Shown: in pieces, positions 6,968 through 49,142 of the stretch
Layout: each line of letters opens with the position of its first letter
How positions within the stretch are numbered: the stretch's first letter is position 1
Translations under genes and position numbers: made by a program
Sequence record: ON075799
Length of the DNA: 64,000 nucleotides
Origin: Escherichia phage vB_EcoM_TH18
Reading direction: 5' to 3' (one strand)
The notes under the pieces: model-generated
What the model was told of the DNA's origin: nothing
The model's database searches: none
The model's input: only the letters and a program-made list of their open reading frames with translations

Positions 6968-7038
6968 AAAGATAGCCTCTGCCGAGGATATACACCCAAC
7001 AAAGGAGGCGCTCAGGTCAGAAGAAATCTGAGCCTTAA

Positions 7039-7132
7039 TGGAGGAAGATGCCAGACTTGAACTGGCACACCCATTTCTGGGTTACTATCTCCTTAGCAGG
7101 GAGATCCCTTACCAAATTAGGGTTAATCTTCC
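7039..7132 (-). tRNA. tRNA-Ser (anticodon GCU), type II
   Basis: 94 nt; acceptor GGAAGAT/ATCTTCC, 3-bp D stem, anticodon arm TCTCC-CTGCTAA-GGAGA, T arm GCCAG-TTCAAGT-CTGGC, CCA encoded. Confidence 0.75.
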
Positions 7133-7153
7133 AATACCTTAGTAATTAAAAAC

Positions 7154-7243
7154 TGGTGGAGAAGGAGAGAATCGAACTCTCAAGCCGTTTTACCAGTCAG
7201 CACATTTCCAATGTGCTTTCGTCGCCAATCGATTTGCTTCTCC
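7154..7243 (-). tRNA. tRNA-Ser (anticodon GGA), type II
   Basis: 90 nt; acceptor GGAGAAG/CTTCTCC, anticodon arm GCACA-TTGGAAA-TGTGC, long variable arm, T arm GAGAG-TTCGATT-CTCTC, CCA encoded. Confidence 0.65.
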
Positions 7244-7252
7244 GTTTTAACT

Positions 7253-7328
7253 TGGCAGGGGATGGTTGATTCGAACAACCGATCACGGGGTCAAAGCCCG
7301 TTGCATTAGGCCACTATGCTAATCCCCT
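7253..7328 (-). tRNA. tRNA-Gln (anticodon UUG)
   Basis: Perfect cloverleaf: acceptor AGGGGAT/ATCCCCT, D arm GCAT/ATGC, anticodon arm ACGGG-CTTTGAC-CCCGT, T loop TTCGAAT, CCA encoded. Confidence 0.85.
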
Positions 7329-7333
7329 TTTGC

Positions 7334-7410
7334 ACGAGAGTGAGGAATAGAACCTCTTAGTCACTGGTTTTGGAGGCCAGCCTTCACCCAGTGAAGTTAC
7401 GCTACTCTCA
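7334..7410 (-). tRNA. non-canonical tRNA-like element
   Basis: Good acceptor (TGAGAGT/ACTCTCG) and T-loop-like GGTTCTATTCC, but D and anticodon regions do not fold into standard arms; no encoded CCA. Confidence 0.3.
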
Positions 7411-7417
7411 TTAAAAA

Positions 7418-7975
7418 CTATTTTCGAAAAGGACTTATGAAAAATGCCAACATCACTCTCTCTCTTGAAAAAGCTCTGTCTTCAGGAACCACACTCTTCA
7501 GTTTCCAACCGACATAAATTCGCCAGTAAAATTGTTTTCCAAACAATCTAAAAGACGGGACAAACGCGAATACACCCCACGCATTGTCATTCCACATCAA
7601 CAAATAGCCTTGTTGGTTATCCTCCACATCAGAGCTTACATGGAGGTTTCCTTTCCACTTTGTCACAGATGTGATTTCACGTCCAAGTACGTGATAGGAG
7701 AAATTGTAGGCTTTATTTCTCCACAACCAAGCAACTCGTTGTAGGTAAACACCAAAACTTCCTATTTTACGGACTTCTTCCCATCTCTCTATGTGTCCTC
7801 TATCACCGTCTATAGGATTATCATATGTCTCCATCCACCTGAAAATATAAGGCAGATGCCCTGTCTTCTCATTATAGAACGGAACAACAAAAGGAGCCAG
7901 AATAACACAGAGAACCGACATAACTGGGTCAAGAGGTGCTAACAGGATCCACGATAAATATTTTAAGTATCTCAT
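7418..7975 (-). CDS. hypothetical protein (185 aa, hydrophobic N-terminus)
   Basis: ORF from six-frame track; start overlaps stop of upstream gene (ATGA). Confidence 0.5.
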   Translation of the reverse strand: MRYLKYLSWILLAPLDPVMSVLCVILAPFVVPFYNEKTGHLPYIFRWMETYDNPIDGDRGHIERWEEVRKIGSFGVYLQRVAWLWRNKAYNFSYHVLGREITSVTKWKGNLHVSSDVEDNQQGYLLMWNDNAWGVFAFVPSFRLFGKQFYWRIYVGWKLKSVVPEDRAFSRERVMLAFFISPFRK

Positions 7976-8202
7976 GCAGGATCAAGCCTAGATATAATGT
8001 ACTGGTTTAAATCTGAATATGGGAAGATACTTTCAAAGATAACCTGTTTAAATCTGAAGCCGCACAAACCGAAAAGTACCTTCTGACACTCACCAAAAGA
8101 GCAATCTTTACCAACTTTTATCACAACCGTATCGGCAATCTGCACACTTTCTATCTCTTTAGATTCATGATGCCGTACTATGATTACTTTAGAAACCATC
8201 AT
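7972..8202 (-). CDS. hypothetical protein (76 aa)
   Basis: ORF from six-frame track; translationally coupled to downstream gene. Confidence 0.45.
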   Translation of the reverse strand: MMVSKVIIVRHHESKEIESVQIADTVVIKVGKDCSFGECQKVLFGLCGFRFKQVIFESIFPYSDLNQYIISRLDPA

Positions 8203-8327
8203 ACTCGTCCATATTAAAGCCTTCTACTAAAGATAGTAGATGTCTAGGGTTGGACCGCAAACGCAACCCCATGGAATTTGTTACGGTCTTCAGTTGACCC
8301 AAGCGGATTTCATTGACATCTTTTAAC

Positions 8328-8402
8328 TGGAGCATCCAGAGGGTATCGAACCCTCGACTTCAGCTTGGAAGGCTGTAGTTTTCCCAATTAAACTATGGAT
8401 GC
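8328..8402 (-). tRNA. tRNA-Gly (anticodon UCC)
   Basis: Acceptor GCATCCA/TGGATGC, D arm GTTT/AAAC, anticodon arm (A)CAGC-CTTCCAA-GCTG, T arm GAGGG-TTCGATA-CCCTC, CCA encoded. Confidence 0.75.
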
Positions 8403-8407
8403 ATATT

Positions 8408-8483
8408 TGGTGGGAGTGGTAGGCTCTGCCCCTACGTCCTCTCGATTATCGGTCGAGCGATCTACTAACTGATCTACACTCCC
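8408..8483 (-). tRNA. tRNA-like cloverleaf with Ile-type anticodon GAU but non-canonical D and T loops and C at position 33
   Basis: All four stems perfectly paired, CCA encoded, but D loop AGTTAGTA lacks GG, T loop is GGCAGAG (no TTC), anticodon loop is CCGATAA. Confidence 0.5.
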
Positions 8484-8546
8484 AAACTGTACTGGCCCAA
8501 CAACCACGATTGGAGGGTATCGTCACACATCAAAGCCAGTACAGTT
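8484..8546. other. long perfect hairpin (13-bp stem, ~37-nt loop) between two tRNA genes
   Basis: aaactgtactggc (8484-8496) and gccagtacagttt (8534-8546) are exact reverse complements. Confidence 0.6.
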
Positions 8547-8551
8547 TTAGT

Positions 8552-8641
8552 TGGTGTGCCGTGATAGAGTCGAACTACCCGAGTCCCTTTCGAGACAGGA
8601 GATTTACAGTCTCCCCCGCTACCCCTACGGTCTAACGACAC
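8552..8641 (-). tRNA. tRNA-Tyr (anticodon GUA), type II
   Basis: 90 nt; acceptor GTGTCGT/ACGGCAC (one G-U), anticodon arm GGAGA-CTGTAAA-TCTCC, long variable arm, T loop TTCGACT, CCA encoded. Confidence 0.7.
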
Positions 8642-8642
8642 A

Positions 8643-8990
8643 TTAACCTTGTTTGAATTGAACAATATCCGTCGAGAACGGTTTAGCTGCCTTAATAGGT
8701 GCTTTTTCTGAGTTATCTTTTTCGAGTAACTCTTCGTTTTCCTCATCAAAGTAATCAGAAAGCATCTGCTCACCTTTCTCAATAACATAACGAGCTATAT
8801 TTTCTCTGATATTGTCTTTTGTATTCACATTCTTCATCAAATCCCTAAGAACCTGATGAGCTTCAGGAATCATTGCAATCAGATTCGTTTTTAAATCTAG
8901 GATATTTTTCTCTAACTGAATTGCATTAGATTCCTCTTTCAGAGGACGACCTTTTCCTCTTCTACGTTTTGTAAGCTGCTTAGTAGCCAT
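8643..8990 (-). CDS. hypothetical protein (116 aa, basic N-terminus)
   Basis: Start refined to MATKQLTKRRRGKG; the longer ORF-track N-terminus overlaps the tRNA cluster; sigma70-like promoter just upstream. Confidence 0.5.
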   Translation of the reverse strand: MATKQLTKRRRGKGRPLKEESNAIQLEKNILDLKTNLIAMIPEAHQVLRDLMKNVNTKDNIRENIARYVIEKGEQMLSDYFDEENEELLEKDNSEKAPIKAAKPFSTDIVQFKQG

Positions 8991-9009
8991 TTTAAAACCC
9001 CACTTAATG

Positions 9010-9039
9010 ATATTATCAAATAAAAACATATCTGTCAAG
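9010..9039 (-). promoter_or_regulatory. sigma70-like promoter (TTGACA, 18-nt spacer, TAATAT)
   Basis: Minus strand reads TTGACA...TAATAT shortly upstream of the ATG at 8990. Confidence 0.5.
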
Positions 9040-9075
9040 TGGTATTTTAACATATTTACCAAGAAATTGAAAGTT

Positions 9076-9152
9076 TGGAGCACGGTGTCGGACTTGAACC
9101 GACATATATCTGTTTTGCAGACAGATCCGTAACCAAATTCCAGCAACCGTGC
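9076..9152 (-). tRNA. tRNA-Cys (anticodon GCA)
   Basis: Acceptor GCACGGT/ACCGTGC, anticodon arm TCTGT-CTGCAAA-ACAGA, T arm GTCGG-TTCAAGT-CCGAC, CCA encoded; D stem weak. Confidence 0.65.
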
Positions 9153-9228
9153 AATAAGTACCCCAGGTAGAGAACCTATAGAGTGGGTCTTACGAGCCGC
9201 GCTGACGATTCTCAAGTTGGGGTTAATC

Positions 9229-9305
9229 TGGTCGAGGAGACAGGATTCGAACCTGTGACCTACGGCTTAGAAGGCCGCTGCTCTATCCAACTGAGCTACA
9301 CCCCG
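9229..9305 (-). tRNA. tRNA-Arg (anticodon UCU)
   Basis: D arm GCTC-AGTTGGATA-GAGC, anticodon arm GCGGC-CTTCTAA-GCCGT, T arm ACAGG-TTCGAAT-CCTGT, CCA encoded; acceptor has one mismatch. Confidence 0.7.
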
Positions 9306-9505
9306 AAAATAAGAATGCTTTATAGTGTATGGTTACTCAACCTCACTCCAACTTCCACAGTTGGTGCTCTACGAGCATGACTACGTTTGAAATCAACGTT
9401 GCGCACCGATAGCTTTCTCACGCATTGTATGCCTCATTCCCAACAAATGCTGATCAGACATTTATATCGAATAATATAAGCTAATACACTATAAAACAAA
9501 CTTGT

Positions 9506-9602
9506 GGCTGGGTGATGGAATCGAACCACCTATGTATTCAACGGCTTCCCCGTCTATTTTCAGGATTATAAATCCTCGCCCTTGCCAAAGGGCTTACCCA
9601 GC
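9506..9602 (-). tRNA. over-long (97 nt) tRNA-like element, anticodon arm ambiguous
   Basis: Perfect acceptor (GCTGGGT/ACCCAGC), D arm GCCC-TTTGGCAA-GGGC, T arm GGTGG-TTCGATT-CCATC; central region has only a 4-bp stem with loop TTTATAA and ~30 extra nt; no encoded CCA. Confidence 0.35.
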
Positions 9603-9604
9603 AT

Positions 9605-9679
9605 TGGTGCTCGCAGCAGGTTTCGAACCTGCAACCCCCTGCTTACAAGGCAGGTGCTCTACCGTTGAGCTATACGAGC
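9605..9679 (-). tRNA. tRNA-Thr (anticodon UGU)
   Basis: Acceptor GCTCGTA/TGCGAGC, D arm GCTC/GAGC, anticodon arm CCTGC-CTTGTAA-GCAGG, T arm GCAGG-TTCGAAA-CCTGC, CCA encoded. Confidence 0.85.
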
Positions 9680-10044
9680 AATAAGACATTGCTTCCGATT
9701 AACAGCCTTGAGGCTTTACAGACCATATCTTGTGAGCCATAACCTGTGCCAAGGATTTCAGATGATAAACGAAATTTTATCTTTCAAGAGTCAACTTTCA
9801 AGTTTCATCTTTTACATTTAACCATTGACCTTTATTGTATGAACTTTTACTTAGTGGAAACAACAAGGCATCTTCGTGTGCCTCGCTGCATCTATGTCCT
9901 GTATTATCCTCATACATATACGATACATGGTGGGGGATATTTAACCTCCAACCCCCAGGAGGCAAGATGATGTAAACTTCGTTAATCAAAAGCAATGTTT
10001 TAAATTTCAAAACAAAGGAACGATAATGATATTATCAGAGCCTT

Positions 10045-10692
10045 TTAGAGAGAGTGCTCAATCTCAATTTCTGTCTTAGCGTTTGACTCAGACAACGCAA
10101 AATCAACGTTAGACAAGAAATCTTCAATCTCTTCTTCAAGAGAACGAATCTTAGAAGCCAGTTCAAGAGGATCCACAACCGATGGTGTGTTCATCATTCG
10201 AATAGGAGCTTCCACAGTCTTAATCTGCTCTGCATCTGGCGCTTTATCACGTTGGATATATGGCGCTCTTGCATTTTCAAGTTTATCTTCCAGAGATTTT
10301 TCTTCTTTTGCCAGAAGAAGCTGTGCAGAAGCACGCTGTGCACAAAGTTTGTTTAACAACTCTTGTTTAAAGCAAATCGTCCGTTTGCGTTCGATTGCCT
10401 CAGCAACTGTCATAGACACATTACCAATTTTGACAATTGTCTCAGCATTAGACTTAACAATTTTTGCTTTCAGTTCATCACGCACTGCCAAGAGGTCTTG
10501 CAGACTTTGATAGTCGTTGATCGCAGATTTCTTAAAATCATCAACAGAGCCGATATAACCCGGAATCTTACAATTATTCTCAGTTCCTTTTGCAATCTTA
10601 ATACAATCAAGATTGTAGATACGCTTATTGATCTTATCTTCAATTTTAGAGATAGAAGCAAGTGCACGAGTTACGGAAATCTTAGTAGACAT
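10045..10692 (-). CDS. hypothetical protein (215 aa, charged coiled-coil-like)
   Basis: ORF from six-frame track; charged, heptad-like composition. Confidence 0.55.
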   Translation of the reverse strand: MSTKISVTRALASISKIEDKINKRIYNLDCIKIAKGTENNCKIPGYIGSVDDFKKSAINDYQSLQDLLAVRDELKAKIVKSNAETIVKIGNVSMTVAEAIERKRTICFKQELLNKLCAQRASAQLLLAKEEKSLEDKLENARAPYIQRDKAPDAEQIKTVEAPIRMMNTPSVVDPLELASKIRSLEEEIEDFLSNVDFALSESNAKTEIEIEHSL

Positions 10693-10765
10693 GCGATCTC
10701 TCCTATGTAAATCAGCTTTGATAAAGTAACTATCCAGAAAAACAAAAACTATGTCAAGAAAAATT

Positions 10766-10957
10766 TTAATCTTTTACAGCATCTTTTATAGAATCACAAA
10801 GATCTTGAACAACATCAGATGTCGGTGACAAAATCATCTCGTCGGCTGCTGCTATAGCATCTGATGCTAAATCAACAAACGGAGTTGTTACCGCAGAAGT
10901 CACTTCAACAGCCGTTATTGTTACTTCGCTTGCAATCTTAAGCAAAGATCCTATCAT
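10766..10957 (-). CDS. hypothetical small acidic protein (63 aa)
   Basis: ORF from six-frame track in an otherwise gene-free gap. Confidence 0.4.
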   Translation of the reverse strand: MIGSLLKIASEVTITAVEVTSAVTTPFVDLASDAIAAADEMILSPTSDVVQDLCDSIKDAVKD

Positions 10958-11033
10958 AATCTCAACCCTCCTGAATATCCGTGATTCCCTTTATTTAACG
11001 ACGCTGGCTCACGGTGGCACTCTCGTCAATAAA

Positions 11034-11357
11034 CTATTTTTTAGTTTTCTTACCGTTTTCTACAGAAATGCTTGTTTTCTGTTTCGCTTCTCGTTCGCGC
11101 TTTGTTTTCCCAGTGCGAATACGATATGAAGCAGAAATAACTTCACCACCAATGACACGAGACACAGATTCGTAATACATTTCAGTATTACCGTCTTCAT
11201 CTTTGCGTTTTTTCAGAACTGCTACAGTTTGCGTTTTACCACCAAGGCGCACATCGTGCGGTGCAGAATGTGTCTGCGTGGATTTTGATCCAAACTGAAA
11301 AGGTTGCTTTATCGCCTCGATAGCTGACACCTTTTTAGCAGACTGTTTCTTAGCCAT
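11034..11357 (-). CDS. hypothetical basic protein (107 aa)
   Basis: Start refined to MAKKQSAKK with strong RBS ggagga upstream; lysine/arginine-rich. Confidence 0.55.
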   Translation of the reverse strand: MAKKQSAKKVSAIEAIKQPFQFGSKSTQTHSAPHDVRLGGKTQTVAVLKKRKDEDGNTEMYYESVSRVIGGEVISASYRIRTGKTKREREAKQKTSISVENGKKTKK

Positions 11358-11408
11358 TAAGTTTTCTCCTCCGAAAACAATAAACATAGTTTATTTCGTG
11401 TGCCACAT

Positions 11409-11485
11409 TTGGTGGCCCCTGCTGGACTTGAACCAGCGACCAAGCGATTATGAGTCACCTGCTCTATCCAACTGAGCTAAGGGGC
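11409..11485 (-). tRNA. tRNA-Met (anticodon CAU; initiator/elongator/Ile2 not distinguished)
   Basis: Acceptor GGCCCCT/AGGGGCC, D arm GCTC-AGTTGGATA-GAGC, anticodon loop CTCATAA, T arm GCTGG-TTCAAGT-CCAGC, CCA encoded. Confidence 0.8.
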
Positions 11486-11818
11486 CGAATCTCTTAATAT
11501 GAGATGATATTATCCTGTATGATCTACATTGTCAAGAGATATTTTAAAATTTTATACATCCCAGTTTTCTTCTTGATAACAACCTTCCCCGAATCCAACT
11601 TCTTTTTCAAAATCAATACCTTTTTTCATACATTCCTCACATTAACAGATATTGTTTTCAAACTCAAAACGTAAAATACGAACTCTGTCAATACACTGCT
11701 GTAATCTACAAAGCAACAACTCAACTTGTTTATGCGTCTCTTCAGTATACGTTTTGGTCATCTTGCTTTTCTCCGTGATCTTTTCATTGCAGCTTCTGCA
11801 CGTCTTTGTTTACGATTT

Positions 11819-21174: not shown

Positions 21175-21531
21175 ATGGCAATCCAGGCAATCATGTTAGA
21201 ACTTACAGATTTCCGTAATACTGTAAAAAATTTATCTAAGAAACAGGTTGACAATATCATCAACGGATACCGTAGCAAGATTAAAGATCTTCCGCTTAAA
21301 CGCGATCAACATGCGGCTAATATGATGTTTAATGCTATGATTAAAAAGATGATCCAATGTGATCTTTCTCTGGCTTATGAATACGCTGGCGATCTCTTTG
21401 CAACGTATAACAAGCCCGTGCTAGGTATGAGCACCACGGAAGAATTACACGCCTTAAATCTGCGGCAAGATGCTTGGGATAATATGCACCGCGTTATGGT
21501 GTGGGTAGAAAGCGGTAAAATTTATCAATAA
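21175..21531 (+). CDS. hypothetical protein (118 aa)
   Basis: ORF with RBS gagaggtaaat. Confidence 0.55.
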   Translation: MAIQAIMLELTDFRNTVKNLSKKQVDNIINGYRSKIKDLPLKRDQHAANMMFNAMIKKMIQCDLSLAYEYAGDLFATYNKPVLGMSTTEELHALNLRQDAWDNMHRVMVWVESGKIYQ

Positions 21532-21586
21532 AAGTAGTTGACTTTTAGTTATGCCGTGATAGAATACACGGCATAGATAAGAGAAA
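21531..21586 (+). promoter_or_regulatory. promoter with dyad operator-like element, copy 1 of a 56-nt direct repeat
   Basis: TTGACT-17-TAGAAT with inverted repeat atgccgtg...cacggcat bracketing the -10; near-identical copy at 25765-25820. Confidence 0.6.
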
Positions 21587-25540: not shown

Positions 25541-25765
25541 ATGGATAAAGTAACAAAGATTGAGCATGAGGTAATTGACTTGGCACGGGCCAACAAGCCA
25601 TTTGATAAGATTTATTCTAAGGAGAATAAAGAGATCTTGAAAGACCTAACGCAAGGTCAAAAAGATGGCTTGCGCCGCTTATATCGTGAGGCGTATGACT
25701 ATTTTCGTTGGTGGGAAATAGAAGAGGCTAACGCGAAAATAGAAGGCCTAGAAAATTTAGTATAA
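25541..25765 (+). CDS. hypothetical protein (74 aa)
   Basis: ORF with RBS gaaggtaat; GC hairpin ggggcgaaagcccc in 5' UTR. Confidence 0.5.
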   Translation: MDKVTKIEHEVIDLARANKPFDKIYSKENKEILKDLTQGQKDGLRRLYREAYDYFRWWEIEEANAKIEGLENLV

Positions 25766-25820
25766 AAGTAGTTGACTTTTAGTTATGCCGTGATAGAATG
25801 CACGGCATAGATAAGAGAGA
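25765..25820 (+). promoter_or_regulatory. promoter with dyad operator-like element, copy 2 of the 56-nt direct repeat
   Basis: Differs from the 21531-21586 copy by a single base (tagaatG vs tagaatA). Confidence 0.6.
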
Positions 25821-33977: not shown

Positions 33978-34178
33978 CTACATCCTCCACGTTAGTTTCT
34001 GAGCGATCTCTAACAAGGCATCTATCTTGTGCATATACTCTTTCCTTTTCTCACTACCAGGAGGGAATTGGTCTCTCGTTTGCATCAAGGTTTTTATCTC
34101 TTCAGACAGATGATTAAGGATTTCAACGCGCTCACGTTTTCGACCTAGTTGCTCAATTTCTTTATCACGACAATTCAT
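33978..34178 (-). CDS. hypothetical protein (66 aa)
   Basis: ORF from six-frame track; divergent from the plus-strand gene at 34258. Confidence 0.45.
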   Translation of the reverse strand: MNCRDKEIEQLGRKRERVEILNHLSEEIKTLMQTRDQFPPGSEKRKEYMHKIDALLEIAQKLTWRM

Positions 34179-34194
34179 AATACACCCTACAGTG

Positions 34195-34223
34195 TTGTCA
34201 AACTATGAGAGTATGATAATATA
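34195..34223 (+). promoter_or_regulatory. sigma70-like promoter (TTGTCA, ~16-nt spacer, TAATAT)
   Basis: Upstream of the lone plus-strand gene starting at 34258. Confidence 0.45.
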
Positions 34224-34257
34224 TGGTGCAACAACTTACAATAGCAGGAGACGATTT

Positions 34258-34539
34258 ATGACTGTAAAAATCCCTAAAGGTGGCAGACCAGATAGAAATG
34301 CATGTGACATGCGTGTAAGGGTAGGGAGAATGTGTCTAATTTATGGAATAACTTATCCACCAATGGTGCGACTTAATGGTAAAATATGTAAGGTCATCGA
34401 CATACCAAAAGATAACACAACACGCTTCTTGTGCAAGGTCAAAGATGAAGAGAAGGTTTTTAACATCCCACACAAAAACCTAACAGTTTTGGATCTTAAT
34501 GACAACATTGTTATCTCTAAATACCGTTGTATAAGCTAA
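34258..34539 (+). CDS. hypothetical protein (93 aa), lone plus-strand gene within the minus-strand block
   Basis: Start refined to MTVKIPKGG with RBS aggag; own promoter and terminator. Confidence 0.5.
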   Translation: MTVKIPKGGRPDRNACDMRVRVGRMCLIYGITYPPMVRLNGKICKVIDIPKDNTTRFLCKVKDEEKVFNIPHKNLTVLDLNDNIVISKYRCIS

Positions 34540-34542
34540 CAT

Positions 34543-34566
34543 AAAAGCCCCGCATGGGGCTTTTAT
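34543..34566. terminator. bidirectional rho-independent terminator
   Basis: aaaagccccg-cat-ggggctttt with A-run and T-run on either side, between convergent genes. Confidence 0.7.
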
Positions 34567-34568
34567 GT

Positions 34569-35309
34569 TTATTCAAAATCATCAACACCACTATCGGTAA
34601 GGTTTTCTCTGCTTGAAGGTTTTGTCGAAAGAACTTGCTCAAGCAGAGAGGAAAATTTCTGCAAATTACTTACAGAAGAAGTACCTGCTGCCATGGCAAG
34701 CATATCCACTTCTTTTTCGGTAGGTTGAGCCCAGTCTAGAAACATCTCTTTCATGTACAACGTTGATGACCCTATTGGTGTGGCGAGGTCAACCCTATCA
34801 GCATAGATCCAGAAAAGAACCTCTTTCTCTATACATACACACAAAGCAGCACCCAACGAGTATCCTGTAACGATGGATGGATATCTTGCAACGAGGATCT
34901 CGACATTCAGGTCATCCCAGTGAAATACAACACCCAAATACTTCATACCCACAATGTCTTCCACTGCGGGTTTTAGCTCCTCATGGGAAGAAAGGGAGTC
35001 ATAGTTAATATTCTTTATGAATTTAAGAACGTCTTGGCGGTTGTAGGCACAATCGTTATCACCTTGCTTCCAATAACCCCAAAATGAAGTCGATAAATTC
35101 AACCAAAAACTTGCAGTTGTCCCTAATGTCTCAGCCAGTTTTTCAGCCACATCTTCTGATACTTCTTCCATGTTATAAAGGATGGTTCTCAACTTATTTA
35201 CCGGTATACCAGATTTGTCGGCAAGATCATCCACACACCAACCTAATGGATCTAGATATTCGTGGATAATAACCTCACCTGGTGATACTGGTGCTCTTTC
35301 TTTTAACAT
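34569..35309 (-). CDS. HTH (XRE/HigA-like) DNA-binding domain fused to an unknown C-terminal domain
   Basis: Start refined to MLKERAP; N-terminus PGEVIIHEYLDPLGWCVDDLADKSGIPVNKLRTIL resembles HigA/XRE HTH; ~180 aa C-terminal part unassigned. Confidence 0.55.
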   Translation of the reverse strand: MLKERAPVSPGEVIIHEYLDPLGWCVDDLADKSGIPVNKLRTILYNMEEVSEDVAEKLAETLGTTASFWLNLSTSFWGYWKQGDNDCAYNRQDVLKFIKNINYDSLSSHEELKPAVEDIVGMKYLGVVFHWDDLNVEILVARYPSIVTGYSLGAALCVCIEKEVLFWIYADRVDLATPIGSSTLYMKEMFLDWAQPTEKEVDMLAMAAGTSSVSNLQKFSSLLEQVLSTKPSSRENLTDSGVDDFE

Positions 35310-35365
35310 TCTTGCTCCTCTATCTATATCAGAAAACCCTGCAAAGCAGCAGGGTTCTGTCACTC

Positions 35366-35569
35366 TTAACACTTAGGTGAGCATTTATCGCACGAACATG
35401 AAATTCCGTGGAAACACAATCCTGTCCCGTCTTTCTTGACCCCTGTTCCACCACACTGGGGACAACTATCGTGTAAACATTTTGTTTTTGTTGTCTCCTC
35501 TTTATCTTTATTAAAGAGGTTTTTCATAATCATTTTCTGTTGTTCAATCGTAAACATTTGCGTCCCCAA
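35366..35569 (-). CDS. small Cys-rich (zinc-binding-like) protein (67 aa)
   Basis: CPQCGG...CFHGISCSCDKCSPKC cysteine pattern. Confidence 0.5.
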   Translation of the reverse strand: MGTQMFTIEQQKMIMKNLFNKDKEETTKTKCLHDSCPQCGGTGVKKDGTGLCFHGISCSCDKCSPKC

Positions 35570-35850
35570 AATCTTTCAAGTGCTTCTGCCTCTTCCATGT
35601 TCGGGAAGATACCGTAGAAACAGAACTTACCTTTAGAGAAGTACGGAATAAATACCCGCCCATCACTGGTTTCAAACATCTTATCAAAATTTGGTAGCTT
35701 CAGGTGTGATTTTATAGCCTCTTTAATACTTTTATCCCATTGATGCTGCCATTTACAGGCTTTTAGGTATTCACTAATATTGTAAGAACCTACTCTCCTC
35801 AAAATACTGGTGAGAAACTTTTTGTTTTTACGAATAATCTTCTTTTTCAC
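35530..35850 (-). CDS. hypothetical protein (106 aa), paralog of the next gene
   Basis: N-terminus MKKKIIRKNKKFLTSIL similar to MKKKLARRNKLFLSKSL of 35828..36133. Confidence 0.5.
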   Translation of the reverse strand: MKKKIIRKNKKFLTSILRRVGSYNISEYLKACKWQHQWDKSIKEAIKSHLKLPNFDKMFETSDGRVFIPYFSKGKFCFYGIFPNMEEAEALERFWGRKCLRLNNRK

Positions 35851-36133
35851 TCAAAAGCCTCATTTCTTCAAACTGCTCTGGTGTCAATAAACTTGTTCCT
35901 ACACGACTGCCATTACCACACATAAGAGGTACGGCAATCATATGGCTATCCTTTTCTGCATTACCTAAATCAAGGTACTCCCCATAACGTTTGATAAGTC
36001 GAATGCTCATTTTTGAATTAGCTAAAGCCCTTGTGTTATAGAGATAATCCTCAAGGTACAAATGTAGATCGTTTGCCACCTTTAAAGATTTTGATAAGAA
36101 TAATTTATTACGCCGTGCCAGTTTTTTCTTCAT
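35828..36133 (-). CDS. hypothetical protein (101 aa), paralog of the previous gene
   Basis: Shared N-terminal basic motif with 35530..35850. Confidence 0.5.
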   Translation of the reverse strand: MKKKLARRNKLFLSKSLKVANDLHLYLEDYLYNTRALANSKMSIRLIKRYGEYLDLGNAEKDSHMIAVPLMCGNGSRVGTSLLTPEQFEEMRLLSEKEDYS

Positions 36134-36326
36134 ACACCCCTCGCTTGTGCCTGTACATTGCCAGAGGCCATACAGAACTCACTATAAAGCATTTCCATGC
36201 CCAACCCCATGCAGTTTTTGGTGCATAGACCTGTTCAAGTGTTTTACTATTCTCCATCTCTGCGGTATGCACAAACCATACCGCAATATACAATGTAACT
36301 GTAATGTAGATAAAGCTATTAATCAT
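36108..36326 (-). CDS. small membrane protein (72 aa)
   Basis: Two hydrophobic segments (FIYITVTLYIAVWFV; CFIVSSVWPLAM). Confidence 0.45.
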   Translation of the reverse strand: MINSFIYITVTLYIAVWFVHTAEMENSKTLEQVYAPKTAWGWAWKCFIVSSVWPLAMYRHKRGVYEEKTGTA

Positions 36327-37380
36327 TCATCTTATCCCAACACATTTGTTGCGCTGTCATCAAGACGTCAGCAGCAAAATCAAGGTCTGTTGACTTCGGT
36401 AAATGCGTGCTCTTGTACAGAGTGTTACGAATATAATCATCCTTCTCTTCTGCCCAAGCCAAGAGCTTCTCCAAAGACCATGCACCATTCCTGATTGCAA
36501 GAAGCTCCTGAGCATCAGGTCTTTTTACTAAGACTTTACCTTCTGCTAGGATCTCCTCAGCCATACGCATCAATCTTACCAAATGGAGAGCATGTTTGCA
36601 ATCGTACCCGTACTTTTCTTCTAAGTCATGCCGAACCAGATTTCTGTTTTTAACCCATGCCCAGTAGTTCTTATGTTTTTCCTTTGCTTGTTTATGCTCC
36701 TCTGCCAGATATTTAACAATTAAAATTGGCTTACGTCTCTTATCCTCGTCAGAGAACTGCTCGTAAGGAACTTTACGAATAGAACCATCAGAGTTAAACA
36801 AGCCAGCATTGTCGTGTGTTCCGATCACGCCATAGATATTATCACCCATGGGTAAAAAGACACACAACTTGTTAAGATCATCCAACATTTTCTGGAAGTC
36901 TTTGTGTTTTGTAAGATTATCATCCATCCACGAGTGTGTCAAGCGCATGAACTCTTTTTGTGTTGGTTGCTCTTTAGGTTGCGGGTTATTAATCCATTTA
37001 TTATGGCCTTTGATACGCTTAAGTTGCGCCATCGCATACCCAGAAAAAGTAAAAGCAACTTTGCTGGATAGGAGTTTTGGCGCTTGCTCGCGTAGGTACT
37101 CGTAAACATCTGAAGTTTGCAGAATGTCACCTCTATCAACAAACATAAGCTCGATGATGTTTGGGTTCATATCAACGAACAACTTCATGTAGTTTGTTAG
37201 CTCATACAGCTTACCATCCTCTTCATCAATAAGGGTCATTTCTCTGTCAACGAAAAATGGGGTAAGAATGCTTTTAGGCTCTGCACAATAAATTCCGCGA
37301 ATATCCACATCGGATGTTGGTAAGTTAGTTCCATATGCAATGCTGCCGGAGTAACAGCGCATTAGTTCTAGTTTCTTCAT
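36319..37380 (-). CDS. Pol-beta-superfamily nucleotidyltransferase, function unknown
   Basis: N-terminal signature YSGSIAYGTNLPTSDVDIRGIY (GS-x9-13-DhD) typical of minimal and cGAS/DncV-like nucleotidyltransferases; 353 aa. Confidence 0.6.
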   Translation of the reverse strand: MKKLELMRCYSGSIAYGTNLPTSDVDIRGIYCAEPKSILTPFFVDREMTLIDEEDGKLYELTNYMKLFVDMNPNIIELMFVDRGDILQTSDVYEYLREQAPKLLSSKVAFTFSGYAMAQLKRIKGHNKWINNPQPKEQPTQKEFMRLTHSWMDDNLTKHKDFQKMLDDLNKLCVFLPMGDNIYGVIGTHDNAGLFNSDGSIRKVPYEQFSDEDKRRKPILIVKYLAEEHKQAKEKHKNYWAWVKNRNLVRHDLEEKYGYDCKHALHLVRLMRMAEEILAEGKVLVKRPDAQELLAIRNGAWSLEKLLAWAEEKDDYIRNTLYKSTHLPKSTDLDFAADVLMTAQQMCWDKMND

Positions 37381-38149: not shown

Positions 38150-38647
38150 CTACTCACCTTTTAGCTTAAAACTTTTCAACGTTTTGATAAAGTCTTTCTC
38201 TGCTGGTGTGTAAGTGTGAACTAAACCTGTTTCTTCACAGGTGTAGGTATCATTAACCTCCATTGCATGTTGAGGGATAAATGTACCTTCAGGAACAGGC
38301 TTATATTCTGGGTTGTAGATAAACTCCGGCAGCACAACAGCCACAGCAGTCATTGCTCCATTCAAGGCTTCCTCTTCTTCACGCCACCAAGCATATGGAT
38401 AAGTTTTGAGAGGCATAAGTTGAGCAAGAAAATCTTGGAGTACTGACTGATAACCACCATTTAAAATAATGATGGTCTTATCTTTTTCTCTCCAACATTT
38501 CAACCAGTGGTGTGCGGTTAACTCCTCTGGCGCTCCTGCTGGTTGGTCATACCATGTCATGAGTTCCGCAATAGCATGTGCCGATTGGATACCTGCATGG
38601 ATACCGGAGATATACTGATTAACAACACAATACATTCTTGTTTTCAT
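38150..38647 (-). CDS. hypothetical protein (165 aa)
   Basis: ORF from six-frame track. Confidence 0.5.
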   Translation of the reverse strand: MKTRMYCVVNQYISGIHAGIQSAHAIAELMTWYDQPAGAPEELTAHHWLKCWREKDKTIIILNGGYQSVLQDFLAQLMPLKTYPYAWWREEEEALNGAMTAVAVVLPEFIYNPEYKPVPEGTFIPQHAMEVNDTYTCEETGLVHTYTPAEKDFIKTLKSFKLKGE

Positions 38648-39187: not shown

Positions 39188-40432
39188 TTAGAATAACATA
39201 TCCCTGCTAATTGCTTTACGAATAGCATCAATACGGGCTACTCGCACAGCTTCACCAATCTCTTTACCCTTCTTACCTTTTTCCAGAAGAGGGTTTGTGA
39301 TAGCTTTAGAATCAACTTTTGTCATAGCGTCATAGGCTTCCAACAAAATATGACCTTGAAGGTAAGGTTTATGCCTAAAATCACCACCTCTTCCTTTAGC
39401 ATCACAATAACATGCATCTGCAAGTGTGTAAACCTTCATTTTCTGATCAGCTTGTCCAGCAGCTTCAAATATTTTCATGATGCTTTTTGGTTTCAAACCG
39501 TTGTTACCATCTGTGGGAGAGATGGCGTGCACTTTTGTGTGATTTTCTGCAACATATTTTGCCGTGTCACGATAGATATTATAAATCTTTAACCTTTCGC
39601 ACAAAGATTGGATAACATCCGCACCAGCTTTTTCATGACCATGCAAATTACCATTGTTCTTGTAAGTTACAGCTTTGCCAAAATCATGGCAAAGCACAGC
39701 AAACTTGGTCAGTGGATCAGCTTCTAATTCATCGGCAACCCGTAACGCTAGAATTGTATGAGTGTAAGCATCCCCTTCTGGGTGGTGTTCTTTAGGTTGT
39801 TGTACACGACGCAGGGCTTCCAGTTCAGGAAGCTCGCCAATACGTCCCATATTGACAGCAAAAGATCTGAAATAATCACTCTTTAAGGCTTTCAACATTT
39901 CATTCCATTTACGCTCGGCGCTTATTTCTGCCAAAGAGTGTCGGTTGTCATAAGCCAGTTTAAAAGTCTCTGGGTGGATATGCCATTCTTCCCCAAGCTG
40001 GGCTTTAAATCTAAACAGGCGTAGAATACGTAACGGGTCTTCAATAAATGCCTGTGATGTATGACGTAATGTTTTAAGTCCTAAATCAACCTGGCCACCA
40101 AAAGGATCAATAATCTCACCACTGTCAACATCCATCGCCATGGAGTTGATGGTTAGATCTCTACGTGCCAAATCCTCTTCCAGAGTTACATCTGGGCTAA
40201 AGCATACCTCAAATCCTTTATGGCCTTCGCCTGTTTTTCTTTCTGTGCGTGCAAGAGCGTACTCTTCTTTTGTTTCTGGGTGAAGATAAACTGGAAAAGA
40301 TGCGCCAACTTGTGTGAACCCTCTTTTCAACATCTCTTCATGCGTAGCTCCAACAACAACATAATCACGGTCTGATAATTCACGACCCAATAATTTATCT
40401 CTAACCGCCCCACCTACCAAATATACCTTCAT
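39188..40432 (-). CDS. cca: tRNA nucleotidyltransferase (CCA-adding enzyme) with HD domain
   Basis: Start MKVYLVGGAVRDKLLG...DRDYVVVG (class II head) and HD-domain region; ATGA overlap with upstream stop. Confidence 0.85.
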   Translation of the reverse strand: MKVYLVGGAVRDKLLGRELSDRDYVVVGATHEEMLKRGFTQVGASFPVYLHPETKEEYALARTERKTGEGHKGFEVCFSPDVTLEEDLARRDLTINSMAMDVDSGEIIDPFGGQVDLGLKTLRHTSQAFIEDPLRILRLFRFKAQLGEEWHIHPETFKLAYDNRHSLAEISAERKWNEMLKALKSDYFRSFAVNMGRIGELPELEALRRVQQPKEHHPEGDAYTHTILALRVADELEADPLTKFAVLCHDFGKAVTYKNNGNLHGHEKAGADVIQSLCERLKIYNIYRDTAKYVAENHTKVHAISPTDGNNGLKPKSIMKIFEAAGQADQKMKVYTLADACYCDAKGRGGDFRHKPYLQGHILLEAYDAMTKVDSKAITNPLLEKGKKGKEIGEAVRVARIDAIRKAISRDMLF

Positions 40433-40701
40433 TTCTTCACCCACATGTTCATATAATTAACAATATCTTTTATGGTTCTCTTGCCGTCCAGTGGATAAAC
40501 CATGTCATCGCTCATCCCACCGTGTTTTAGCATTGCTACCAGCCTAGTATATACCCCTTTTGGTCTTTTGCAAGTTCTTTTCTTCCATTTATGACCGTCT
40601 GGGGAGTACTCCTTATCTTCAAGAGAGATATGAAGTATATCTCCTATAAACTCTTTTGCCTGTGTGCTGTAAAGTGGACGGTAGAATATGTAGAATTTCA
40701 T
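40429..40701 (-). CDS. hypothetical protein (~90 aa)
   Basis: Start tentatively MKFYIFYRPLY; stop overlaps cca start. Confidence 0.45.
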   Translation of the reverse strand: MKFYIFYRPLYSTQAKEFIGDILHISLEDKEYSPDGHKWKKRTCKRPKGVYTRLVAMLKHGGMSDDMVYPLDGKRTIKDIVNYMNMWVKK

Positions 40702-46879: not shown

Positions 46880-47240
46880 TGATGAAACGAGTTTGTCAGA
46901 TAATCTCTTTCGATTAATCCTGGGTATGCTTCTTTAAGTTTTGTGGCAAATTTATAACACAGAGATTCTGCCGATGTACCGCTGCTTTCGCAGTATTTTC
47001 ACGGACTAGACTATATCACGATCTTGTGACCACTCACAAGACCCTCCACATTTCGCCATTCAAGGCTACTCTACTCGCTTCTTCACATCAGGTGAAGCTG
47101 ATGCTATGCTTTCGATAGTCGTTAGAGACAATCTCTTGCCTACGGGGTTAGCTCTGCCCCAACAGGGTTTAGCCTTTCTTACCAGCTTATTGTTTATTCA
47201 GCTATGCCCGTTTAGTGGAGTTATTCGACAACCATCACTG
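46880..47240 (-). mobile_element. putative group I intron in nrdD (no ORF; boundaries approximate)
   Basis: ~360 nt non-coding insert between nrdD segments; R-like gatagtcgtt (~47120) and S-like agactatatc (~47003) elements. Confidence 0.5.
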
Positions 47241-47753
47241 GTTGAAGGCCCAATTGTGTTTAGGCGTGCCATATAGGCTAAATGCTAAACCACTTCGCTC
47301 TTTAAAATCAGCACAAATATCCTTCATATATTTCAAGATATTCATTGCCATCTCTTTACGAACTGGTTCGCCATACAAAATTTCAACTGCTTCATAAAGA
47401 CCCACATAGCCAATACTGATTGATGCGTAGCCATTAAAGAAGAGTTTACTAATCTTTTCATCAGGTCCGAGCCGTGCAATAGCCCCCTCCATAAACATTG
47501 TGGGATTCTGGGATGCTTTTACATCCATCAATCTACCGACTCTAACCATGTGCGCTTTATACGCCATTTCCATGTGCTTTTCAAGCAATTCGGTAAACAG
47601 AGTTTTCTTAGATTTTGCTTCTGCTGCAATCATAGGTAAGTTTAGAGAGACAACACCAAGATTGAATCTACCATCATATTTCTCACCATGTTCTGTTGCA
47701 TAATAAGATAAGAAACTTCTACACATTATGTTCGAAGTGGTTCGCAAGGCCAC
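47235..47753 (-). CDS. nrdD: anaerobic ribonucleotide reductase NrdD, central exon (ORF ends extend into introns)
   Basis: In-frame segment between two intron-like inserts, assigned to nrdD by position; true exon limits likely ~47245-47725. Confidence 0.6.
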   Translation of the reverse strand: MALRTTSNIMCRSFLSYYATEHGEKYDGRFNLGVVSLNLPMIAAEAKSKKTLFTELLEKHMEMAYKAHMVRVGRLMDVKASQNPTMFMEGAIARLGPDEKISKLFFNGYASISIGYVGLYEAVEILYGEPVRKEMAMNILKYMKDICADFKERSGLAFSLYGTPKHNWAFNQ

Positions 47754-47985
47754 TCCCGCACCACTACGTGCTGCTGCATGTCACCATGCAGACCAGACCA
47801 TATCTTCATGCTTAAAGCATGTCTGCCGTTTGGGGTGTCATCAGCTTACACTCTACATCCCTACATTCATCAGGATTGGTCGTTAGGCATTTACGGTTGA
47901 TACCGATTTAGCACGGGATTCCCTCCATAGAGGATTCCCCCGTTTAGGCAGATTTTACATGAGCAGTTATAGTTTACCCATGCTT
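47726..47985 (-). mobile_element. putative group I intron in nrdD (no ORF; boundaries approximate)
   Basis: Non-coding insert with a 38-nt block (47755-47792) identical to one in the terminase intron (609-646); S-like agaccatatc and R-like ggtcgtta elements. Confidence 0.5.
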
Positions 47986-49142
47986 GTAACACGCCCGTCT
48001 GAAGAACCTGTTACCTTTTTATTCAACGGTACAGATATGAAATCTGGATAAATCCTTTCAACACAACACTCCATGGCTAATTGCTTTAAGTCGTAGTTGG
48101 GATCGCCAGGTTTCATGTTTACACCATCTTCCAAGAAGAAGATAACTTTTGGAAAAACAGGTGTGACTTTGTCTTTGCCAAGTCCGTTTTTGTGAACAAG
48201 AAGATAATTCTTTGTAATCATTCTCCCAAAATAGGAAGTATCAAGCCCAAGACTCAAGGTGATAAATGGGCATTGACCGTTAGCACTCATCAAGGTATTT
48301 ACCTGATAAAGCAATGTCTGCATAGCATCGTAAACATCTTTTTCCGTCATCTGCATAGCTACACCTTCTGGGTCTGGCAGCCATTGCTCCTGACAAAATT
48401 TTAGATTTTTATCGTAACTTGCCTTGGCATATTGTTTTAATCCTTCATCAATATGGGTGTATGACTGACCACCATATTGAACCGAAGAAACTGATTGGGA
48501 TATCTGGCTAAGAATGGTACAGGCAACACCTATCGATTTCGGCTTTTCTATTTTTGCATTGCCAATTTTAAAACCGTTCTCCAACATATCCCTATAATTT
48601 ACAAGACTGCAATTAGTTAATGGGCTTATCAAATAATCTAAGTCATGTATATGACCATAACCATTTGTATGCCATTCAGCCAATTCTTTTGGTAGAATTT
48701 GAGTTAGTGAGACGTGCTTGCTAAGGATACCCGCGAGAAGATCACGATGGCTACTAACCACCCCACTTGGTTTATTAGCGTTTTCTTTAGTAAATTCATC
48801 GGCAGTTTGTTCTAAGAATCCCGTAATATCTGCAAACAGTTTTCCTTTACCTTCCCTAACGTTATCACGCGTTTTACGATATTCAATATACGCCCGTGCA
48901 GCGTTCTTGAGGTCAAGATCCATTAGTGAATCTTCCACAATGCGGTGAATATCACAAACAGCCACTTTCTCTTGCGGTGGTTCTGATTTTTCCAGAGTTT
49001 CATAGGCTTGCTCGCCAACTGCACACGCCAGAGGATATGATTTCTCACCATAACCAGCAGCAATTAAAGCGGCTTCTGCCGCTTTAATAACTTTCACACC
49101 ATCATAATCTTCTTCACGCCCATCACGTTTAACAACTTTCAT
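47967..49142 (-). CDS. nrdD: anaerobic ribonucleotide reductase NrdD, 5' exon (N-terminal region)
   Basis: N-terminus MKVVKRDGREEDYDGVKVIKAAEAA (ATP-cone-like); ORF 3' end likely runs a few codons into the intron. Confidence 0.75.
   Translation of the reverse strand: MKVVKRDGREEDYDGVKVIKAAEAALIAAGYGEKSYPLACAVGEQAYETLEKSEPPQEKVAVCDIHRIVEDSLMDLDLKNAARAYIEYRKTRDNVREGKGKLFADITGFLEQTADEFTKENANKPSGVVSSHRDLLAGILSKHVSLTQILPKELAEWHTNGYGHIHDLDYLISPLTNCSLVNYRDMLENGFKIGNAKIEKPKSIGVACTILSQISQSVSSVQYGGQSYTHIDEGLKQYAKASYDKNLKFCQEQWLPDPEGVAMQMTEKDVYDAMQTLLYQVNTLMSANGQCPFITLSLGLDTSYFGRMITKNYLLVHKNGLGKDKVTPVFPKVIFFLEDGVNMKPGDPNYDLKQLAMECCVERIYPDFISVPLNKKVTGSSDGRVTSMGKL

Follow-up and report, generated by a model that had tools for sequence, protein, structure and literature searches.

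Why does a single plus-strand gene, within a long block of minus-strand genes in a myophage, converge on a gene that opens with an antitoxin-type DNA-binding domain? The window analysed here, 64,000 nucleotides of Escherichia phage vB_EcoM_TH18 (ON075799), comes from an Avunavirus-like member of the Vequintavirinae, an rV5-like E. coli phage. Escherichia phages 18-1-2, 19-1-2 and 24-2-1 match the region with 100% identity, and Av-05 (Avunavirus) with 93.5%. A previous sequence-only reading had suggested that the two genes could form a regulatory switch or an antitoxin-like module. Its HTH, its fusion protein and its separate plus-strand unit have withstood our analysis, while the antitoxin-like module and the notion of a strand break peculiar to this genome have not. 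We consider it fairly probable that the locus is a conserved Vequintavirinae transcription-unit boundary holding two independent accessory genes, which are neighbours by inherited order and not a cognate pair.

Gene content of the locus

The features on which the argument relies are the following:

33978..34178, minus strand: 66-aa gene, homologue of PVP-SE1 gp174 (phrog_19160), predicted first gene of the restarted minus-strand unit
34195..34222, plus strand: putative sigma-70-like promoter of the 93-aa gene (TTGTCA, 16-nt spacer, TG-n-TAATAT; pattern match)
34213..34241, minus strand: putative sigma-70-like promoter toward the 66-aa gene (TTGTAA, 17-nt spacer, TATCAT; pattern scan)
34258..34539, plus strand: 93-aa gene, ATG 34258, TAA 34539, assigned to the PVP-SE1 gp173 family (phrog_13562)
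34538..34569, both strands: bidirectional intrinsic terminator, perfect 14-bp stem AACATAAAAGCCCC/GGGGCTTTTATGTT, 4-nt loop
34569..35309, minus strand: 246-aa fusion gene, ATG 35309, TAA 34569, predicted HigA-family HTH plus gp172-family domain (phrog_1381; homologue of Av-05 gp57)
34599..35030, minus strand: predicted gp172-family domain, about residues 94-237 (phrog_19128)
35064..35297, minus strand: predicted HigA-type HTH domain, residues 5-82 (TIGR02607, PDB phmmer)
35335..35356, minus strand: hairpin AACCCTGC-N6-GCAGGGTT, followed by TTTTCTG on the minus strand, 26 nt upstream of the fusion ATG
35366..35569, minus strand: 67-aa gene, homologue of PVP-SE1 gp169 (phrog_17149), zinc-finger motif CxxCxGxG, next to the fusion gene on its upstream side

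PHROG matches, conservation and purifying selection establish the two convergent ORFs as real genes, mostly ordinary accessory ones. Each protein matches a PHROG family, and both genes are kept in Av-05, in 18-1-2/19-1-2/24-2-1 and in the metagenomic relative L016. Purifying selection acts on the 93-aa gene (dN/dS 0.27), on the fusion gene (0.16) and on both halves of the latter (HTH part 0.07, C-terminal part 0.18). GTG-start versions of the two ORFs (115 aa from 34192; 267 aa from 35372) were dropped in favour of the ATG starts, since Shine-Dalgarno sequences are present (AGGAG at 34246-34250 ahead of the 93-aa ORF, GAGGAG before the ATG of the 246-aa ORF) and the N-termini of the homologues agree. 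According to a greedy ORF map, the genes from about 30 to 64 kb lie on the minus strand and the 93-aa gene is the only supported plus-strand gene among them; a PHROG search with the four remaining plus-strand ORFs of this block returned no match. The positions of both ORFs, their converging orientation and the description of a lone plus-strand gene, all proposed from the letters, are hence borne out. Neither an Rfam nor a tRNA scan found anything at the locus, and a literature search retrieved no transcriptomics or functional data for the 93-aa or the 246-aa gene.

A shared terminator and a conserved spacer with putative promoters

A long minus-strand unit, which crosses the nucleotidyltransferase region, closes with the gp172-family gene at a strong bidirectional terminator, and the gp173-family gene on the opposite strand ends at the same terminator, a layout that is syntenic in four genera. 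The two arms (34538-34551 and 34556-34569), perfect over 14 nt, fill exactly the gap between the two stop codons. Folding energies amount to -21.6 kcal/mol (z -5.7) for the plus strand and -22.1 kcal/mol (z -6.5) for the minus strand, a U-rich tail follows on either strand, and the structure is the strongest inverted repeat between positions 30 and 40 kb. An equivalent bidirectional terminator is annotated between gp172 and gp173 in PVP-SE1. The earlier proposal that the plus-strand gene constitutes a separate unit closed by a bidirectional terminator is upheld.

On the other side of the 93-aa gene, the 79-bp spacer would carry two divergent sigma-70-type promoters. The plus-strand candidate, which matches 9 of 12 positions and has an extended -10 in the pattern scan, would drive the 93-aa gene as a monocistronic unit, while its minus-strand counterpart would restart minus-strand transcription. 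The region contains nine consensus promoter matches against a shuffled expectation of 6.2, a number not above expectation; the same spacer in PVP-SE1 holds a strong divergent pair, with 10 of 12 positions on the plus strand and 11 of 12 on the minus strand. The spacer is also unusually conserved, with 95-97% identity among relatives (Av-05, L016) compared to 82-88% in the flanking coding DNA. The two best promoter matches share overlapping -10 hexamers, the sole hint in favour of the regulatory-switch idea, and a search for inverted repeats in this divergent promoter spacer found none.

Synteny and distribution of the two families

The window could be linked ORF by ORF to PVP-SE1, KpS8, Hena1 and GAP31 by homologues of the nucleotidyltransferase, gp169, gp172, gp173, gp174 and gp175/176. 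The gp173-like gene was opposite in strand at all 12 loci inspected, and the inverted gene, the divergent promoter spacer and the terminator occupied the same syntenic place in Seuna-, Mydo-, Henuna- and Avunavirus. The strand break, formerly regarded as an oddity of this genome, is thus ancestral synteny common to four genera. What varies is the partner that converges on the gp173-like gene: a gp172-like gene in Seuna- and Avunavirus, an endonuclease-VII-like gp171 homologue in KpS8, and another gene in Hena1.

Genes of the gp173 type were found in 68 phage records, those of the gp172 type in 30, and the HTH fusion in five, which are Avunavirus records; among the 68, the HTH is missing from 63 and a gp172-like gene of any kind from 38. 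As most phages with the inverted gp173-like gene possess no HTH protein opposite it, and the gp172-like gene itself is absent from many, we conclude that the HTH was added, in Avunavirus only, to a gp172-family gene that already existed. Wherever both families occur they are adjacent and convergent in every record checked, for which reason a functional link between gp172-like and gp173-like proteins may exist. The range of these genes appeared narrow, as an IMG/VR scan with the 93-aa family alignment yielded only seven loci, in known genera throughout, and a search with the concatenated gp173 and gp172 alignment returned Vequintavirinae-like matches only.

The pair gp172 (phrog_19128) and gp173 (phrog_13562) of PVP-SE1 has the same families, order, convergence, divergent promoter spacer and terminator place as the window. 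The gp173 homologue of the window is 10 aa shorter than PVP-SE1 gp173. PVP-SE1 gp172, with 164 aa, carries no HTH, and its start overlaps the endonuclease-VII-like gp171, a gene missing from this window; the gp172 domain of the window, in turn, lacks the C-terminal 'FVEEY...VIVL' end of PVP-SE1 gp172 and has an acidic tail in its place.

The 93-aa protein

Full-length homology and the same inverted syntenic position identify the 93-aa protein as a member of the gp173 family (40% identity to PVP-SE1 gp173, E 1e-19; phrog_13562, 7e-14 over residues 1-88), and no match was obtained against Pfam at E<=1. The AF2 model (mean pLDDT 70, about 80 in the core) presents an SH3/KOW-like beta-barrel core at approximately residues 20-80, and not a RelE/HigB fold. 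Small SH3-like barrels such as Spt5/NusG KOW, Tudor, PsaE and the B. subtilis SPbeta protein YorP (2heq) have 4-21% sequence identity with the 93-aa protein, which differs from them in its own conserved N-terminal tail, K-G-G-R-P-D-R-N-x-x-D, and in the absence of a KOW motif. With no KOW motif and no Pfam match, assignment to the KOW or NusG-Spt5 domains was discarded as a resemblance of fold only. The G-x-P-D-R-N tail is probably extended; its GGRP was considered as an AT-hook or Hin-type minor-groove arm, a reading that we rejected, as the KpS8 and Hena1 homologues do not keep the arginine. The SH3-like fold is too common to point to a function, and it is as a guess at fold level that we infer from the model a protein that binds a macromolecule of the host or the phage, either a nucleic acid or another protein, rather than an enzyme or a toxin.

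A HigA-type HTH joined to a gp172-family protein

The N-terminus of the 246-aa protein had been read as an HTH of the HigA/XRE type, and profile and sequence comparisons support this assignment. TIGR02607 matches residues 5-74 with 5.9e-16 and 58.1 bits, over a cut-off of 47.7, and phmmer against PDB sequences retrieved YbaQ (2eby, 7e-11), GraA (6f8s, 6e-8) and VapI (3trb, 7e-8), with HigA also matched; Pfam HTH_3 reached 17.7 bits, below its cut-off of 23. With a mean pLDDT of 48, the AF2 model of the fusion is of poor quality, and the HTH fold therefore rests on sequence. Four helices (26-33, 37-46, 52-62 and 65-74) appear in the HTH part with pLDDT below 60, and Foldseek against the PDB matched this part only, finding GraA with probability 0.97 and a TM score (target) of 0.42, values that come from a low-confidence model with weak E-values; the HTH of AcrIIA15 was among the matches.

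Residues 5-82 can be aligned over their whole length with the HigA family (TIGR02607; E. coli YbaQ 2eby, GraA 6f8s/6f8h of P. putida and Coxiella VapI 3trb), sharing the N-terminal PGE...L motif and the FWLNL helix. Unlike HigA, the window protein is 246 aa long and includes an extra domain of about 155 aa that is absent from every HigA; in contrast to HigA systems, its gene has no HigB/RelE gene upstream or adjacent, its carrier is a virulent-type myophage, and no autoregulatory operator was identified for it.

The remainder of the protein had been described as an unknown domain of about 180 aa. The fusion itself stands, while the domain measures about 155-165 aa and can be placed in a family, since it belongs, by sequence and by its same place upstream of the terminator, to the gp172 family of PVP-SE1. 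This is indicated by phrog_19128 (2.9e-9, residues 97-227), by BLASTP of the 246-aa protein against PVP-SE1 gp172 (4e-12), and by an alignment of the C-terminal domain that covers the full 164-aa family length; a profile of the domain hits residues 94-237 of P0001, a protein 96% identical to that of the window, with 7.7e-45. Single-sequence homologue searches returned near-identical relatives only. An exhaustive profile search of 1.84 billion representatives found nine proteins and no tie to any known family, from which we conclude that the gp172 family is phage-only and tiny. The domain profile had no match among PDB sequences, and the gp172 domain was left unmatched by Foldseek against the PDB with the fusion model. 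A Pfam scan of all family members produced sub-threshold strays (DUF3489, 0.044, in one or two members; DprA_WH, 0.16), which at best suggest very faintly a winged-helix-like C-terminus and on which we do not rely.

Candidate DNA targets

An operator search covering inverted repeats in the spacer and the palindrome upstream of the fusion gene found no DNA target for the fusion protein. The hairpin at 35335-35356 is the sole palindrome upstream of that gene and is unique in the window; it is kept in Av-05, and one mismatch weakens the L016 copy. Because it occurs as a single copy in the window, an operator role is not supported, and from its sequence it looks like a terminator or attenuator.

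More distant sites had also been connected with the fusion protein, namely the dyad-bearing promoters at 21531 and 25765; we considered whether it might repress these early promoters in an early-to-middle switch. These promoters are identical over 35 nt and each has a perfect 9-bp dyad centred on the -10 (TATGCCGTG-N8-CACGGCATA across this element), far above chance, and HigA-type HTH dimers are known to bind palindromes. However, promoter and dyad are also present in Klebsiella phages 05F01 and KP13-26 (Stephanstirmvirinae) and Salmonella phage SSBI34 (Vequintavirinae), with symmetric changes in both arms, and none of these phages has a homologue of the fusion protein at E<=1e-5; moreover, the vicinity of the fusion gene contains no copy of the dyad. 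Since those three phages have the dyad and not the protein, its reader is probably one common to all dyad-bearing phages. The proposed link is weakened accordingly, and a role of the fusion as repressor of the two promoters seems quite improbable.

Toxin-antitoxin and counter-defence alternatives

Could the 93-aa protein be a toxic or effector partner, with the HTH fusion as its antidote and regulator in a toxin-antitoxin-like or switch module? The genes lie side by side, both being conserved and under selection, gp172-like and gp173-like genes are always neighbours where both are present, and the N-terminal domain of the fusion is of the HigA family. Nevertheless, the genes converge on a bidirectional terminator of -22 kcal/mol and so do not form an operon, the 93-aa family does without the HTH in 63 of its 68 records and without a gp172-like gene in 38, and the HTH was added late to a gene already at this position. 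Neither neighbour of the fusion gene, the 67-aa zinc-finger protein or the 93-aa protein, matched RelE, ParE or HigB, and the latter had no match in Pfam or NCBIfam and no meaningful one in PADLOC. With convergence across a terminator, an HTH fusion in only five of the 68 records with the 93-aa family and no adjacent RelE/HigB-like gene, the antitoxin-like module of the sequence-only reading finds no confirmation, and we regard it as extremely improbable. A second possibility is an orphan antitoxin mimic acting in counter-defence, whose HigA-like domain would neutralise the HigB/RelE-type toxin of a host TA or TAC system that acts by abortive infection, while the gp172 domain stabilises it or adds a second activity. 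The domain exceeds the curated HigA equivalog cut-off, the protein is an orphan given that the phage has no cognate toxin gene, and the gene is limited to one genus, as is often the case for accessory anti-defence genes. Orphan antitoxin-like proteins directed against TA defences are known from phages (PMC11825919, PMC11481870), and HigBA-chaperone systems are reported to act as antiphage defences (bioRxiv 10.1101/2024.02.24.581848). The DarG-like AdfA/AdfN and T4 Dmd likewise exemplify an antitoxin-family domain in a lytic phage without its toxin (PMC11825919), but they come from different antitoxin families and their targets have been demonstrated, so that the likeness to the window protein is one of concept only. 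On the other hand, the HTH domain shares at most about 40% identity with plasmid HigA proteins, and a search of 5,426 E. coli genomes at the DNA level returned no match to it, so that nothing points to its recent acquisition from a TA locus of the host; the deposition of YbaQ, the nearest relative with a solved structure, calls it no more than a putative HTH regulator, PADLOC gave no noteworthy match, and toxin neutralisation by HigA proteins uses family-specific surfaces. Altogether, this mimicry appears rather unlikely. A broader version, which we hold to be improbable, would make the fusion a self-regulated counter-defence protein whose HTH neutralises host HigB/RelE-type abortive-infection toxins or autorepresses in an Aca-like manner, whose gp172 domain is a new anti-defence or host-takeover effector shared with Seunavirus, and whose functional partner is the SH3-like gp173 protein.

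Proposed origin of the fusion and its implications

Returning to a conserved boundary with two independent accessory genes, the path to the present locus would have included the joining of a diverged HigA-family HTH to the N-terminus of an existing gp172-family protein, in Avunavirus only. This HTH would confer sequence-specific DNA binding and dimerisation on the fusion, and the gp172 domain would keep its accessory role within it. The most likely use of the acquired domain would be to repress the fusion's own transcription or other early phage transcription, as in other phage HTH-effector fusions. AcrIIA15 and AcrIIA1 consist of an autorepressing N-terminal HTH fused to an inhibitor domain. 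The window protein is like them in architecture, with a small N-terminal HTH, a phage-specific C-terminal domain and an accessory gene; the likeness is an analogy, as its C-terminal domain is not homologous to theirs and no operator was identified.

Should these steps hold, the locus would offer a clean natural case of a lytic phage that equipped an older accessory protein with a DNA-binding domain of the antitoxin type, and would define a conserved monocistronic 'reverse' gene between divergent promoters and a shared bidirectional terminator. Both families are confined to a narrow phage group, and no major question is opened or settled by them; the subfamily concerned is in use for biocontrol of E. 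coli O157 and Salmonella. For annotation, the result corrects the RefSeq/PHROG label 'plasmid antitoxin with HTH domain', which Av-05 gp57 (92% identical to the 246-aa protein) carries in RefSeq, together with the GenBank name 'putative pirin', labels that imply functions without support from the gene context.

Organization of the convergent gene pair

In a greedy ORF map the window divides into a plus-strand block (~15.7-28.7 kb) and a minus-strand block (~30 to 64 kb), and the convergent pair proposed within the latter by a sequence-only reading was recovered:

34258-34539, plus: 93-aa gene, ATG 34258 to TAA 34539, AGGAG Shine-Dalgarno 8 nt upstream
34569-35309, minus: 246-aa fusion gene, ATG 35309 to TAA 34569, GAGGAG preceding the start

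Purifying selection acts on both genes, dN/dS being 0.27 in the plus-strand gene and 0.16 in the fusion gene (0.07 in the HTH part, 0.18 in the C-terminal part). The 93-aa gene could indeed be regarded as a lone plus-strand gene, the remaining plus-strand ORFs of the minus block giving no PHROG match. Over the 3 kb around the pair, identity is 100% to Escherichia phages 18-1-2, 19-1-2 and 24-2-1 and falls to 93.5% for phage Av-05 (Vequintavirinae, genus Avunavirus).

The bidirectional terminator suspected between the genes was confirmed. The 29-nt gap between the stop codons is taken up exactly by an inverted repeat whose 14-nt arms (34538-34551 and 34556-34569) pair perfectly, the strongest such repeat at 30-40 kb of the window. 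The folding energies are -21.6 kcal/mol (z -5.7) for the plus strand and -22.1 kcal/mol (z -6.5) for the minus strand, and a U-rich run follows the hairpin on both strands. Two promoter-like matches lie in the 79-bp spacer (34179-34257) that precedes the 93-aa gene:

34195-34222, plus: TTGTCA-16-(TG)n-TAATAT, consensus match
34241-34213, minus: TTGTAA-17-TATCAT, consensus match

The claim that the 93-aa gene has its own promoter stood in part. Between the window, Av-05 and the metagenomic relative L016, spacer identity amounts to 95-97%, compared with only 82-88% for coding DNA, and Salmonella phage PVP-SE1 carries divergent promoters scoring 10/12 and 11/12 at the equivalent position; however, both sites are consensus matches only, and such matches are no more numerous in the region than expected from shuffling.

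Protein families and origin of the locus

The 93-aa protein falls into phrog_13562 (7e-14) and shares 40% identity with PVP-SE1 gp173 (E 1e-19). By tblastn, members of this family are encoded in 68 phage records, from the genera Seunavirus, Mydovirus, Henunavirus and Avunavirus. Conservation in the family is highest along the N-terminal tail, K-G-G-R-P-D-R-N-x-x-D, in which G-x-P-D-R-N-x-x-D is invariant across genera; model confidence is low in this tail, which is probably extended. In Av-05 (4758-5040 of its locus), one additional G in a G/T run (GAAGGGTTTTT vs GAAGGTTTTT) cuts the gene into an annotated 68-aa CDS and an unannotated conserved tail, which probably reflects either an error in sequencing or a frameshift that arose very recently.

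A HigA/XRE-type HTH had been proposed at the N-terminus of the fusion, and residues 5-82 indeed match the NCBIfam model TIGR02607 (antidote_HigA) with 58.1 bits, above the curated cut-off of 47.7. The phmmer matches among PDB sequences include E. coli YbaQ (7e-11), P. putida GraA (6e-8), Coxiella VapI (7e-8) and several HigA proteins, while Pfam HTH_3 and HTH_26 scored below threshold. Since identity to plasmid HigA proteins reaches at most about 40% and none of 5,426 E. coli genomes gave a DNA-level match, the domain is a diverged member of the HigA type and was not recently captured from a host. AF2 modelled the fusion poorly (mean pLDDT 48), and Foldseek recognised the HTH part alone.

The C-terminal domain, previously taken as unknown, proved not to be unique: residues ~94-237 match phrog_19128 (2.9e-9), and the domain can be aligned from end to end with the 164-aa PVP-SE1 gp172 (BLASTP 4e-12). 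No fold could be assigned to it by Foldseek, Pfam scan or profile comparison with PDB sequences. The gp172 family is tiny, occurring in 30 phage records by tblastn, all Seunavirus or Avunavirus, and only 9 members emerged when 1.84 billion representative proteins were searched exhaustively with a HMMER profile. Only the five Avunavirus records and four closely related metagenomic clusters contain the full fusion.

ORF-by-ORF comparison showed the window to be collinear with PVP-SE1, KpS8, Hena1 and GAP31 for the nucleotidyltransferase, the 67-aa zinc-finger protein (gp169), gp172, gp173, gp174 and gp175/176; gp170 and gp171 have no counterpart anywhere in the window. In each of the 12 loci inspected, the gp173-like gene runs against its neighbours, and the PVP-SE1 annotation includes a bidirectional terminator and divergent promoters at the corresponding sites. 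Its convergent partner varies, being gp172-like in Seunavirus and Avunavirus, a homologue (79% identity) of the endonuclease-VII-like gp171 in Mydovirus KpS8, and some other gene in Hena1. It follows that the small reverse-oriented gene was present in the ancestor of the subfamily. gp172 is accessory and limited to two genera, and the HTH was added to its N-terminus later, in Avunavirus only.

Other Vequintavirinae loci contain longer reverse units:

L005: 2265-2794
L006: 1945-3220
L007: 2235-2797
L008: 2018-2580
L009: 2027-3486
L011: 2028-3501

The extra genes, upstream of the gp173-like gene and on the same strand, encode a small phrog_16965 protein (~80 aa), a 190-aa protein in Hena1, and an HNH 'endonuclease' in SSE121 and FENT2. 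This site looks like a hot spot of gene gain and loss.

A 361-nt non-coding segment separates the 93-aa gene from the fusion in Av-05 (5040-5400) and L016 (1122-1484), with 97% identity and a 2-nt indel between them, compared with ~89% for the flanking genes. The segment carries a promoter-like site on the minus strand as well as a terminator of its own. As it is missing from the window (junction 34540-34568) and gave no match in Rfam and tRNA scans, it could represent a small RNA gene or a mobile-element remnant.

Possible functions of the pair

The suggestion of an antitoxin-like module found no support in these comparisons. A toxin-antitoxin pair is contradicted by the gene orientation with a terminator between the genes, by the SH3/KOW-like fold modelled for the 93-aa protein, by the failure of the two families to co-occur and by the absence of a HigB/RelE gene nearby. 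The fusion protein might, less probably, act as an orphan antitoxin mimic, since phages carry such proteins (PMC11825919); no result of this analysis favours it. The best-supported reading is a conserved transcription-unit boundary carrying two independent accessory genes.

Beyond the gene and terminator architecture, we can only infer a mechanism. The HTH would probably enable a gp172-type protein to dimerise and to bind DNA in a sequence-specific manner, and the fusion would most plausibly repress its own or other early transcription. The phage HTH-effector fusion AcrIIA15 has the same architecture, and its HTH was among the Foldseek matches. The single palindrome found upstream of the fusion gene,

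35335-35356: palindrome followed by a T-run,

appears to behave like a weak terminator or attenuator and not like a repeated operator. Public records label these genes as hypothetical proteins, 'plasmid antitoxin with HTH domain' or 'putative pirin'. Our literature searches found no description of the fusion architecture or its origin, which to our knowledge are described here for the first time.

Two distant promoters had also been named as possible targets of the fusion protein:

21531-21575, plus: sigma-70-type promoter TTGACT-17-TAGAAT
25765-25809, plus: sigma-70-type promoter TTGACT-17-TAGAAT

The sites are identical over 35 nt, and at both a perfect 9-bp dyad, TATGCCGTG-N8-CACGGCATA, straddles the -10 element, far beyond chance. 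Promoter and dyad also occur together in Klebsiella phages 05F01 and KP13-26 (Stephanstirmvirinae) and Salmonella phage SSBI34, where matched arm changes preserve the symmetry (e.g. TATGACCTG...CAGGTCATA). Because these three phages have no fusion homologue at E<=1e-5, the dyad is unlikely to be a private operator of the fusion protein. The presence of the same element in two phage subfamilies, with symmetric arm changes, suggests a conserved operator or DNA structure common to them, making the dyad an interesting feature in its own right.

Neighbouring genes and other features

Upstream of the pair and elsewhere in the window we found:

5903-11486, minus: 13 clustered tRNA genes (Rfam tRNA matches)
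35366-35569, minus: 67-aa zinc-finger gene, phrog_17149, DnaJ-like CxxCxGxG
35530-35850 and 35828-36133, minus: adjacent, slightly overlapping phrog_12809 paralogues (E 1.4e-4 and 1.5e-31)
36319-37380, minus: RlaP-type nucleotidyltransferase (Pfam PF10127, 2.6e-13)
38150-38647, minus: 'hydrolase', phrog_3668
39188-40444, minus: CCA tRNA nucleotidyltransferase, phrog_2244
47774-48014, minus: group I intron (Rfam RF00028, 79.8 bits)

The 67-aa protein, with the motif CPQCGGTG and further Cys pairs, is kept as gp169 in PVP-SE1, KpS8 and Hena1, and the phrog_12809 pair is a tandem duplication directly upstream of its gene. The proximity of the RlaP-type, 'hydrolase' and CCA genes suggests an RNA/tRNA repair set upstream of the pair. 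The intron interrupts an nrdD-like anaerobic ribonucleotide reductase gene, leaving ORFs 47967-49142 and 47235-47753, and resembles the known nrdD intron of T4.
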